This document shows positions 151 to 63,705 of a stretch of 64,000 bases of DNA, one piece after another (within the stretch, counting starts at the first letter, position 1; each line of letters opens with the position of its first letter). Under the pieces are notes generated by a model. It searched no databases, was not told the DNA's origin, and saw only the letters and a program-made list of their open reading frames with translations. The DNA is from Eledone cirrhosa. Lineage: Eukaryota. The position numbers and the translations under genes are program-made. The DNA lies in NCBI GenBank assembly GCA_964016885.1, contig OZ024747.1, positions 65,906,001-65,970,000 on the forward strand, read 5' to 3'.

Positions 151-247
151 CATCTATCTATCTATCTATCTATCTATCTATCTATCTATCTATCTATCTA
201 TCTATCTATCTATCTATCTATCTATCTATCTATCTATCTATCTATCT
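151..247 (+). repeat. (TATC)n microsatellite, upstream target of Tx1 copy 1
   Basis: Pure TATC run ending directly at element sequence (…tatct|gggcccgcg). Confidence 0.95.
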
Positions 248-2860
248 GGGCCCGCGTGACAGAGGCCAACAGTGGAACTAAATCCACCATCCGGTCTTTG
301 CGAGACCTGGATGGACGGGCGATTCTTGAGCCTAAGCAGATGTGTGAGGCCTTTCAAAGGCACTTTGCCCGACTGTTCGGGAGGGGCGGGGAGCCGGTTG
401 GGAACGTGGACTTCGGTCCATACCTCGACGGCCTGCCGCGCCTCTCGGACAGGGAGGCGAAGTCCTGCGAGGAGCCGATTTCGGCGGCTGAGATAGAGGA
501 CGTGCTGAGCCAATGCGGCAAACGCAAATCCCCGGGTCTCGATGGTCTTCCTTACGAATTATATCTAGCTATGCCGAACTTGTTCCCCGATCTCCTCGAG
601 GCGGTCTACTGCAATTGGCAACAGAACGGGAGAATTCCCTGTACTGTGACCAAGGGCGTAGTCACGCTAGTGAGGAAGGACGAGAACTAGGGGGACGATA
701 TAAATAATTTCAGGCCCATAACTCTGCTAAATACAGAGTTACAGATTTTGGCCAAGGTGCTAGCAAAGAGGTTGGCGCTTGTCGTGGGCAACCTGGTGGG
801 AGATGCGCAGACATGCGCTATCCCGTCCAGGTCCATCCATGACAACCTCCACCTCATGCGATGCATCATAGAGAGGGTTGGGAACGAACCCGGCTTTGGT
901 GGGGCTCTGATCAACTTGGATCAATCTAAGGCGTTCGATAGGGTCGACCATGGTTACCTGGATGCGGTGCTAGCGGCGGCAGGCTTCGGACCCGTTTTCA
1001 GGGGCTGGATCACTGCTATGCACAGCAGCCGCATCTGCTCTAGGGTCAAGGTGAACGGCTACCTCTCGGAGCCGTTCAAAATCGCGCGGTCCATCCGACA
1101 AGGGTGCCCTCTCTCCTCCCTTCTGTATGTGTTGACTCTCGAGCCACTACTGCGGAAGTTGGAGTTGTTGCAGGGCATCCTTTTGGAACCGGGATTGCGG
1201 AAAGCGGTGTCGGCCTACGCCGATGACGTGACAGTAATGGTGTCGACGGCCTCCGAAATCGAGGCGGTCGGCACCTTACTGGAGGAGTACGAAAAGCTCA
1301 CAGGGGCTAAGCTGAACCGGGACAAGTCGATCGGTTTGCAACTCGGCACGTGGAGGGGCAGACCGATGCCCTCCGATGGCGTCGTCGGACGCTAGACGGA
1401 GGGCCCGGTGAAGTTGCTCGGGGTCTGGTTCGGACCGGACCTCCAGGTGGAGAAAAACTGGGCGGAGGTTACGAACAGGGTGTTTGCACTGACCCAGAAG
1501 TGGGCCAGTTGCAAACTATCCCTGAAAGGTCGGGCGGAGGTGGCGAACACCTACATAGCGTCCGTCATCTACTACCGCCTGACCGTAGTGCCCTGCCCAA
1601 GGGAAACCCTCACCAAGATGGAGCGCGCGCTCTTCCAATTCCTTTGGAAGAGGCGGGCTCCTATGGTGAGGAGATCCATCTGCTGTCAACACCCTTCGAA
1701 TGGAGGGCTGGGGATGCCGTGGCTAATGATGCGTAAACACGCATTAAGGCTACGGCACCTCTACGTATTCCTCACCGGACAACCGGTGTGGGCCTCGTTT
1801 GTGAGACGAACCTTTCCCAGACTCGTCTCACTCACCGAGCTGCAATCCTGGGTCAAGCAAAGACCGAGAAAACTGAGCGCCTGGCACACTGAGTGTGCCC
1901 AGGCGCTCACCGCCCTCTGGCAGGCGGATCCGGTTATCAGTGGAGACTCCACCGCAACATTCTATAGAGGGCTGGTACGCAGCAGGTGCGACGACGCCCT
2001 CGGAGAAGCCCTAGACATGGAGGAGGGCGAACTGGCCAGCCTGTTCGGTAGGACATTCAGCCCGGGACCTATGGACAACTTCCAGAAGTCCCTGGCCTGG
2101 CAGTGCTACCGAGGGGCTTTACCCGTTCGAGAAAGGCTCTACAGACACGGGCGCCCGGGTAGGGACCCCGCCAAAAAGATCTGTCCCAGATGCGTGTGCG
2201 ACGAGGAAACCGTTGCACACGCATTGGTACACTGCTCGGGCGTAGCCGATCTATGGGGCTATGTCGAACAACTGCTGTCAAGGGTGGGACCGATCCGGTT
2301 GACCACCGAGTCTATTGTAATGATCAAACCGCCTCCCCCCTTCAAAGATGAAGCAGAGGCGGTGTTTCTGTGCGTAATAGCCATGGCGAAAGAGGTTGTA
2401 TGGTGGACGCGTCTGAAAGGACTGAGGTCAGGCACCTTTCTCTCTGGCCAACAACTGGTCCGTTTCTTCCGATATCATTTCGGAAGAAGGATCAGGATGG
2501 AGAGAGAGGTGCTGCACCCCAGCCGTTTCTATGAAAGATGGGTGAAAGTGGCGAGAATGGCCCGTGTGAATGGGCCTTCACTCTACATCAGACTATAGGT
2601 GAGGAAGATGAAAGACCAAGGGAGCACCCCTTCTCTGTGCTCCTGAGGAGAAGGGTTGCACAATTTTTTCGGGGGTGTGTGCGACCTCCCAAGGCGCCTC
2701 CTCTCTATTGAGGATTTTGTTAAAAATTTTATTTTTTGTTATATCTTATTTTATTTTTATATTTTGTTATTGCCTCCTCCTTATTGAGGACGCCTTTTGT
2801 GTAAACTCCCCCCTTTGTACTTGTCCCACTTTTGATGCCCTAGTGGCAAATAAAAGAAAC
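248..2860 (+). mobile_element. Tx1/L1-clade non-LTR retrotransposon copy 1, 5'-truncated (starts inside ORF2)
   Basis: ORFs 256-690, 748-1395 and 1408-2598 are one frame broken by TAG stops. RT motifs KSPGLDG, DQSKAFDRV, RQGCPLS, YADD; C-terminal CPRC..EETVAHALVHC. AATAAA near 2849, then TATC. Confidence 0.93.
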
Positions 2861-2878
2861 ATATCTATCTATCTATCT

Positions 2879-3077
2879 TCGTACTCCTGGAGTTGAGGGT
2901 TGCACATTTTTTGGGGGGTATGTGTTACCCATATAAACTGTCTCCCCCTATTGGGGAAAATCGACTAACTTTTTAAATTACATTTGTGATAACATTTTAC
3001 ACGTTTTTATTGTATGTAAACTTCCCCCTTTGTATTTGTCCCCTTCTTTTGTGCCCCTGTGGCTAATAAAGAAACAT
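2879..3077 (+). mobile_element. Tx1 3'-UTR-only fragment (copy-3 type)
   Basis: Near-identical to 19527-19725; TATC on both sides. Confidence 0.88.
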
Positions 3078-3117
3078 ATCTATCTATCTATCTATCTATC
3101 TATCTATCTATCTAAGT

Positions 3118-3199
3118 ATTTTACACGTTTTTATTGTATGTAAACTCCCCCATTGTACTTGTCCCACTTTTGATGCCCTGGTGGCAAATAAAAGAAACA
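3118..3199 (+). mobile_element. Tx1 3'-tip fragment (chimeric)
   Basis: Terminal ~80 bp with AATAAA between TATC runs. Confidence 0.8.
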
Positions 3200-62830: not shown

Positions 62831-62967
62831 GTGAAGAAGTGAAGAGGAAAGGGGGAGCGCCTCCTCTCTGGGCTTCCCCCGCGAAAAGAGTTGCACACTT
62901 TTCGGGGGTATGTGCAATCCCCAACACGCCCCCTCCCTTTTGAGGACTTTTTATTGTTATATTATTA

Positions 62968-63065
62968 TTTGACTTTGCCTTTCATCCTTACGGGGTCGAT
63001 AAAATAAAGTACTAGTAATGCACTGGGTAATTGCTGGCCTTGTGCCTAAAGTAGAAACAATTATT
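62968..63065 (+). mobile_element. SINE fragment nested in the 3' UTR of copy 7
   Basis: SINE body with a possible TSD ttattgttat (62951-62960 and 63064-63073). Confidence 0.8.
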
Positions 63066-63217
63066 ATTGTTATTCCTTTTTTCTTTACTCGATTTATGTA
63101 AACTCCCCCACTGTGTAAATGTCCCCTTCTTTTGTGCCCTCGTGGCAAATAAATAGAAATTTATCTATCTATCTATCTATCTATCTATCTATCTATCTAT
63201 CTATCTATCTATCTATC

Positions 63218-63418
63218 TTGCACAACACGCTCCTCGAGTTGAGGGTTGTTCTATCGACGGGGTATTAAACAACCCATTTGTGGCGCCTCCCCCCTATTGG
63301 GGATTTCGATTGTTGAAATTGTTTGTTTTTATAATTTTTACACGACTGTATGTAAAATCCCCGGCATGTCTTTGTATTGTCCCCTTTTCTTGTTGCGCCC
63401 TTGTGGCTAATAAAGAAA
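63218..63418 (+). mobile_element. Tx1 3'-UTR-only fragment (copy-4 type)
   Basis: Near-identical to 25303-25503; TATC on both sides. Confidence 0.9.
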
Positions 63419-63705
63419 TCTATCTATCTACCTACCTACCTACCTACCTACTTATCTATATCTATATGTATGTATGTATTGTTTCGTCTTTTCTGGGACT
63501 GCCAATATATAATTTTTACTAAGAAAACCTTTTCCACATGGCATTATTAATTCGTATATTGTTTTTTATTTTACTTTCATTTGGTAGTATTGGAAATATT
63601 GCAAAGTGTTTCCCCCCTCCAATCAACACACATTTTACAGAAATCGAGTTTAGCTTTTTGCAAAAGGTATAGCATATTTTTGTAAACTTTATTCCTTCAC
63701 ATGAC

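Follow-up and report, generated by a model that had tools for sequence, protein, structure and literature searches.

Several retrotransposons without long terminal repeats (non-LTR) insert into microsatellites. Within the Tx1 clade, Kibi and Koshi of teleost fish occupy (TC)n and (TTC)n, respectively (PMC4494074; PMC3812793), and the crocodilian families Tx1-1_Crp, Tx1-5_Crp, Tx1-6_Crp, Tx1-1_Gav and Tx1-2/3/5/8_AMi are found on (TTCC)n or (TTTC)n (PMC4494074). Dong, Waldo and Mino use (TAA)n, (ACAY)n and (AC)n, and the targeting of microsatellites by apurinic/apyrimidinic endonucleases (APE) is described as poorly understood (PMC3812793). Here and below, cited papers stand for those portions of their text that were available. 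We have analysed a stretch of 64,000 nucleotides from Eledone cirrhosa (assembly GCA_964016885.1, contig OZ024747.1, positions 65,906,001 to 65,970,000, forward strand), hereafter the window, which holds eleven pieces of an APE-type long interspersed nuclear element (LINE). The pieces belong to an L1/Tx1-type lineage whose copies reside, always in one orientation, in (TATC)n; its endonuclease likely recognises a short TATC core and nicks the strand that reads GATA.

Element ends across the genome and in the window

The 3.0-Gb genome was searched with four 3' and two 5' untranslated regions (UTRs), none containing the repeat, and the best 30 loci per UTR query were taken, which biases the sample toward young copies. 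Among 116 3' ends outside the window, TATCT or ATCTAT lay within 12 nt in 101 and a perfect TATC 8-mer was present in 88. The 85 5' junctions in view comprised 66 with TATC, 10 internal deletions, 1 inversion and 8 others. Setting aside the deletions and the inversion (11), and one junction at a locus edge, left 73 truncated junctions, of which 58 carried a perfect TATC 8-mer and two the GATA 8-mer of the reverse strand; at random positions the TATC 8-mer occurred within the junction window in 0.32% of 31,800 cases (600-kb sample, 60 stretches of 10 kb at round coordinates). The tabulation of genomic flanks proposed in the earlier note, which would have spoken against its reading had most 5' junctions lacked TATC, therefore came out in its favour. 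Both the 5' (58/73) and the 3' (88/116) fractions lie above the figure of more than 20% of flanks in one sequence type by which target-specific families have been recognised (PMC4494074). All 60 full-length 5' ends among those listed were preceded by TATC. These junctions are weaker evidence, because their last repeat units appear to be borne by the element: a variant base at position -7 of the 5' run is common to 13 of 29 full-length subfamily B copies, compared with 2 of 29 at -11 (p=0.002).

The excess of TATC does not follow from repeat abundance, since AGAT runs (12 in the 600-kb sample) are no commoner than ACAG runs (17) and far rarer than AT (521), AC (124) and AG (78) runs; ACAT and AAT runs numbered 44 and 19. 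A pattern of element tip plus TCTATCTATCTA gave 7,544 matches in the genome, some sites being counted twice, and reversed control patterns of tip plus repeat gave none genome-wide.

Target duplications identify the repeat as the site of entry. Of 64 copies anchored by ATCT at the 3' end, 21 had their 3' flank duplicated at the 5' junction, reaching 3 nt or more beyond the first base outside the repeat, as compared with a mean of 1.1 and a maximum of 5 in 300 random re-pairings. The duplications were 10-22 bp long except for two of 34 bp (median 16 bp), as expected of target-primed reverse transcription; three extend into a homologous neighbour and are hence less informative. Reconstructed pre-insertion sites retained TATC on both sides of the nick, and the site of one copy (L138) held fewer than two units, so that a short TATC core suffices. 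Fewer than two perfect units followed the anchor at 38 of 116 3' ends. In one of 316 tips (L121) poly(A) separates the element end from the repeat, yet (TATC)n stands on both sides. The duplications running from repeat into other sequence, together with this copy, support the earlier proposal that the repeat is the insertion target and not only a tail. A lack of duplications in full-length copies was also considered and not established (3/11 versus 17/37 in truncated copies, p=0.32, two of the three being trivial tandem matches).

The earlier note had described three arrays in the window (151-7575, 13795-29781 and 56046-63430), made up of seven large copies together with four 3' tips, each on the strand that reads TATC, and this description was confirmed. 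Pieces of open reading frames (ORFs) match APE (PF03372), reverse transcriptase (RT; PF00078) and zf-RVT. The features are as follows.

152..247, + strand: (TATC)24 target run opening array 1
248..2861, + strand: c1, 5'-truncated, subfamily A; RT, zf-RVT, two in-frame stops and 3' UTR, then TATC at 2862-2877
2879..3076, + strand: t2, tip of a subfamily B 3' UTR, 98% to c5; then (TATC)9
3115..3199, + strand: t3, 85-bp tip with an A-type end; then (TATC)3
3213..7563, + strand: c4, subfamily A; an internal deletion joins the start of ORF1 to APE; frameshifted; a short TATC run after it
13794..13891, + strand: (TATC)24 run opening array 2
13892..19725, + strand: c5, full-length, subfamily B; 5' UTR, broken ORF1, ORF2, 3' UTR with AATAAA
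16060 (ATG) to 19486 (stop), + strand: ORF2 of c5, with frameshifts
19754..25502, + strand: c6, full-length, subfamily C, frameshifted; then (ATCT)28 at 25503-25614
25630..29782, + strand: c7, C-related (84% to c6); 3' part lost beside an inverted repeat
51500..52295 (about), + strand: decayed internal fragment assigned to family F (ATT-type sister family; hairpin NRIG), not flanked by TATC
53921..53984, + strand: (ATCT)16, a pure run, unoccupied
56047..56170, + strand: TATC run opening array 3
56171..57122, + strand: c8, 5'-truncated, subfamily E; then a degenerate TATC run to 57334
57258..57279, + strand: t9, 22-bp 3' tip within the degenerate TATC run
57335..63161, + strand: c10, full-length, subfamily D; APE frameshifted
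59870-62830: open stretch of 986 codons in c10, RT and zf-RVT
62969-63071 (about): short dispersed repeat interrupting the 3' UTR of c10
63219..63417, + strand: t11, tip of a subfamily C 3' UTR, 98% to c6; TATC runs on either side (63162-63217 and 63418-63429)

The 3' end is intact in ten of the eleven pieces, and TATC follows all ten directly, as previously claimed; ahead of it they read AATAAA and a few bases. The claim that every piece begins in TATC stood for nine, which are immediately preceded by TATC or TACC units, and failed for c6 and c7, whose starts (19754 and 25630) follow the degenerate units ..TCTCTTTCTGTC and ..TTTATCTCTCTATC, respectively. The string TCTCTTTCTGTC is likely borne by the element, because it recurs ahead of related heads at other loci. 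ORFs were examined across the window, and none of its copies has both intact. At the break point of c7 lies a near-perfect inverted repeat (29785-29968) with arms of about 80-90 bp, as judged by eye.

Related families and the endonuclease hairpin

Two further families, F and G, were found in the random 600-kb stretches. Family F, with 70-74% nucleotide identity to c5, was situated at (ATT)n at 28 of 29 3' ends and 9 of 16 5' junctions (ATT 8-mer background 0.9%), and the older family G at 20 of 29 and 6 of 23. None of these ends and junctions (29 F and 29 G 3' ends, 16 F and 23 G 5' junctions) carried TATC; conversely, an ATT run occurred at one of the 116 3' ends of the TATC group. An assignment of family G to (AGT)n, suggested by a single locus, was rejected in view of the 20 of 29 ends at ATT. 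A twelfth Tx1-like piece in the window (about 51500-52295) is 80% identical to family F and 67% to the copy at 13892 (c5). Four ATT-type copies (L290, L325, L330, L331) lie within (ATT)n tails that belong to a short dispersed repeat; this repeat is abundant and occurs in the window as well (e.g. 8279-8408 and 62969-63071).

A third repeat, (TGTC)n, is used by a young subfamily within the TATC group. The pattern of tip plus TCTGTCTGTCTG gave 74 genome matches, 23 of which share a distinct 3' end. Four copies with this end were retrieved; (TGTC)n follows all four, and also stands at the start of the three long ones. The distinct end occurred in none of the 100 TATC matches listed, no genome-wide count being made. 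One TGTC copy (L415, G000:C2:368145000-368151100), in tandem with another copy, has a 436-codon ORF1 frame and a stop-free ORF2 frame of 1163 codons.

In a quick IQ-TREE search subfamilies A-E formed one clade (support by the Shimodaira-Hasegawa-like approximate likelihood-ratio test, SH-aLRT, 100) with G as sister (98) and with F and an Argonauta protein deeper, and a FastTree search put the TGTC subfamily within the TATC clade, grouped with A and D (99). Copy c7 and short rows were left out by a length filter, and the trees have long branches and database proteins, not L1, as outgroup. With that outgroup, the branching suggests the target order ATT to TATC to TGTC. The opposite direction for the last step, GACA to GATA, was rejected for the TGTC subfamily described here, as it nests inside the TATC clade. 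The earlier statement that clearly diverged subfamilies share the TATC target was borne out (APE identity of 64-87% within the TATC group, 55-62% to the ATT types). Its corollary that the specificity is old applies relative to subfamilies A-E and does not extend beyond them, TATC being derived and the deeper branches using (ATT)n.

The TATC and ATT types are separated by 16 of 234 APE positions, including C74/Q75 versus S/R and S211 versus I. In the TGTC subfamily 19 positions conserved in the TATC group are altered, five of them in the APE region; one of the five is R210N, a residue kept in both older groups. Residues 210-211 lie in a segment that aligns, in weak alignments (E 0.01-0.1), with the betaB6-betaB5 hairpin of the L1 endonuclease (L1-EN). 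The loop of this hairpin enters the minor groove downstream of the nick, and grafting it alters nicking preference (PMC1950540). The tip reads NRIG in 19 of 26 ATT-type copies, NRSG in 38 of 52 TATC-type copies and NNSG in all three long TGTC copies. We tentatively propose, while leaning somewhat against it, that one or two residues at the hairpin tip switch the microsatellite, the move from (ATT)n to (TATC)n being due to I211S and the later one to (TGTC)n to R210N. As a working hypothesis, the change from TATC to TGTC introduces a G:C pair immediately after the presumed nick, and loss of the arginine would fit the amino group thereby placed in the minor groove.

A number of observations tell against this proposal. 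The link between hairpin and target is a correlation over two switches, i.e. two events, and any clade has fixed differences (here 16/234 APE positions between the TATC and ATT types, and in the TGTC subfamily 14 of the 19 changed conserved positions lie outside APE). The enrichment of changes in APE (p=0.01) may reflect faster evolution, the C-terminal part having 17/366. Decayed copies include exceptions, one TATC-type copy with NRIG and four with NRNG, and 51 of the 74 TGTC matches have ordinary TATC-type ends. Both trees were quick searches without bootstrap. In loop grafts specificity was not transferred in a modular fashion, and a read-out of DNA shape was favoured (PMC1950540). Near-intact frames exist for each state: the ORF2 frames of L092 (TATC) and L415 (TGTC) are stop-free, and that of L260 (ATT) lacks stops in its aligned part. 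No TATC-type APE was found in protein databases, where the three closest APE fragments are of the ATT type.

Choice of the repeat and formation of arrays

Insertion would begin with a nick at AGA^T or AGAT^A, with an ambiguity of one base. Duplications, about 15-16 bp in length, start at ATCT or TCT, and the TGTC junctions read AAA|TCTG in 20 of 23 cases; a start at TCT fits the TGTC and TC-run junctions better and, on the GATA strand, would correspond to a nick at AGA^T. The RNA would be cleaved and polyadenylated slightly past AAUAAA and would usually carry a few UCUA units, whose pairing with the nicked strand would fix where reverse transcription starts; judged from the junctions, such units are likely a usual part of the element RNA. 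The second strand would be cut about 15 nt away. Each insertion would leave target on both sides, so that later copies could enter the same run and build head-to-tail arrays, and the switches from ATT to TATC to TGTC would come about partly by changes at the betaB6-betaB5 hairpin tip (NRIG, NRSG, NNSG).

The RNA may, however, do more than pair. In an alternative that we consider rather unlikely, the enzyme nicks pyrimidine/purine repeats loosely and only those nicks that pair with repeat units in the RNA prime reverse transcription, so that a copy in a new repeat would pass that repeat to its progeny with no change in the enzyme. The subfamilies show short (GAAA|TCT) and long (GAAA-NNTA|TCT) junction forms that differ by exactly one degenerate four-base unit, as expected from read-through past AATAAA into the repeat and as if read-through captured target bases; the variant base shared at -7 points the same way, and TATC-type ends also occur at TA, TC and TGTC runs. 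On the other hand, the insertion of L121 into TATC involved poly(A), ahead of which no repeat unit is visible (one case), and many ends (38/116) have just the duplicated target after them. Moreover, stray insertions in (TA)n and (TC)n, the commonest repeats, gave rise to no subfamilies of their own among 316-345 tips, and the switches that did spread accompany hairpin changes. We regard as very unlikely that TATC is made solely as a tail at unspecific sites, the 5' TATC deriving from earlier tails, slippage or survival in harmless DNA. Full-length copies do appear to bring 5' TATC units, for 32 of 58 full-length 5' ends the tip of another copy is no more than 170 nt away, and six of eleven long TATC runs in the 600 kb adjoin an element. 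This account is already contradicted by the 5'-truncated copies, which cannot carry 5' units and still show TATC at 58 of 73 junctions, many in non-element DNA; by duplications that include both repeat and other sequence; and by the strand polarity (wrong strand in 2/73), which selection could not produce. Targeting by the endonuclease at a short TATC core is hence the account we prefer, with some weight on the other side of the scale. Fifteen of the 116 3' ends lack TATC (six at (TA)n, five at TC-rich runs and four elsewhere), indicating loose specificity; the loci are best matches to window copies, older copies being under-sampled; and the RNA, apparently with repeat units at both ends, could bias the choice of site.

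The arrays themselves could in principle stem from tandem duplication, unequal crossover or mis-assembly, and some arrays outside the window (L099, L104) do contain near-identical neighbours. For the window this origin is contradicted and hardly credible: pairwise identity among its large copies is 74-92%, and neighbours among them share 77-92%, come from different subfamilies (A to E) and are truncated at different points, so that the arrays are stacks of separate insertions. In subfamily B 20 of 29 full-length copies, and in D 12 of 29, have the tip of another copy at most 170 nt upstream, and six of eleven merged TATC runs of at least 16 nt in the 600-kb sample adjoin an element. Repeated use of a scarce target, with about half of the long TATC runs occupied, may be enough to produce arrays. 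At three loci (L005, L142, L158) a new copy lies right upstream of an older 5'-truncated copy, with which it shares its starting point in the element, suggesting that pairing with this homologous neighbour serves to join the second strand.

Two further features of the element sequence were observed. A short hairpin, CCCC-TATT-GGGG, occurs in the 3' UTR (window positions 2944, 19593, 25375, 57004 and 63290; L230, L272, L273) and is kept across TATC- and ATT-type families despite diverged UTRs, possibly as a signal for RNA recognition. Donor-like GT(A/G)(A/G)GT sites stand just ahead of ORF2 in all four copies shown (16019, about 21800, 27837, 59341), and a pyrimidine tract ending in TAG|G lies at the ORF2 stop in six of six (2598, 7303, 19486, 25268, 56897, 62830), as if ORF2 could be spliced out whole.

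Classification and comparison with described elements

The stop-free 1162-residue frame of L092 matches PF03372, PF00078 and PF13966 (the last below cut-off, E 3e-5) and no other family. The lineage has the features of L1-group APE-type non-LTR elements, i.e. N-terminal APE, RT, a C-terminal zinc knuckle, an upstream ORF1 (with a weak CCHC hit only), 5' truncations, AATAAA and target site duplications. The best solved relative is human L1 ORF2p (E 5e-46). In phmmer searches a medaka protein with relatives annotated as TX1/YTX2 scored 329 bits and human L1 160 bits, with different query lengths and databases, and BLAST gave 313-367 bits to three fish proteins; from these scores membership in Tx1 is likely. 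The nearest named homologue is a protein of Argonauta hians (63%). In the trees, with their long branches and their outgroup of database proteins, the octopod clade groups with unnamed proteins at 37-46%, apart from the fish proteins. ORF2 is 29% identical to the Tetraodon pol-like protein BAC82605.1, which falls with the fish group and which we take to belong to the series of Kojima and Fujiwara 2004. The ESM Atlas returned generic RT/APE clusters only, and metagenome contigs gave four distant hits at 23-36%, which were not used.

An unrelated LINE in the window (44777-49606, - strand), with RT and an RHD..RPDI restriction-like motif, forms a head-to-tail array in (CATA)n with tips at 44777-45476 and about 49635-50227, and is presumably Dong/R4-like by its motifs. 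By eye, a CATA-type repeat follows nearly all of 29 other loci, with one (L373) in CA-type repeats, and (CATA)n stands ahead of most visible 5' junctions; the reported target of Dong is (TAA)n (PMC3812793). Two further RT fragments (33218-35184 and 38586-39422, both - strand) were noted, one with a weak RVT_1 hit and the other, which we take to be Penelope-like from its motifs, with no Pfam hit. The window also contains a 287-bp direct repeat (30561-30847 and 31045-31331, 98.6%), a 288-bp tandem pair (32280-32854) and a 37-bp minisatellite (37573-37771).

L1-Tx1 families, probably of the same superfamily and from the same host group, have been annotated in coleoids (PMC8967140) and in Octopus vulgaris, there with 13 recently active families (PMC13282606). 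In the main text of the latter paper the word 'target' is absent, and TATC, ATT or TGTC targets of Tx1 elements are not named in the available text of PMC4640811, PMC8869645 and PMC3747384. No report of such targets was found in the literature searched; Repbase, Dfam, Kojima and Fujiwara 2004 and the supplements of PMC4494074 and PMC13282606 could hold such entries.

For the genome studied here, many GATA microsatellites are interrupted or flanked by LINEs (six of eleven long runs in 600 kb), which matters for marker design and repeat annotation. The lineage offers three genomic targets among closely related natural enzymes, an order of change and candidate residues in the expected loop, and is relevant to site-directed integration into harmless repeats. 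If the hairpin tip does switch the target, the three near-intact states in one genome are a natural series with which the target code of L1-type endonucleases becomes directly testable.

Dong belongs to the R4 clade and has a restriction-like endonuclease, and Waldo and Mino belong to the R1 clade. All three likewise target microsatellites, and the repeat used by Dong is also that of families F and G; they differ in belonging to clades other than that of this lineage. The L1-EN loop grafts LTx and LR1 (PDB 2V0R, 2V0S) concern the same endonuclease family and the same hairpin, contacting DNA just downstream of the nick (PMC1950540). They were engineered between distant enzymes, whereas the enzymes here are natural, 55-87% identical, and differ in genomic target. 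Kibi and Koshi resemble the lineage as APE-type non-LTR elements in microsatellites with TC-containing units, presumably read on the same strand, and differ in using (TC)n and (TTC)n instead of (TATC)n, (ATT)n and (TGTC)n. With TC-rich runs at 5 and TATC at 101 of the 116 3' ends, the lineage is neither Kibi nor Koshi by target. The crocodilian Tx1 families share tetranucleotide targets and, as related families with differing targets, show that target change in the Tx1 clade was already known; they differ, compared by description, in repeat units and host, and the available text ties no endonuclease residues to the change (PMC4494074). The lineage works like these known microsatellite-targeting Tx1 families, to which it adds genome-wide evidence of targeting, the order of two target switches, candidate residues and near-intact enzymes for each state.

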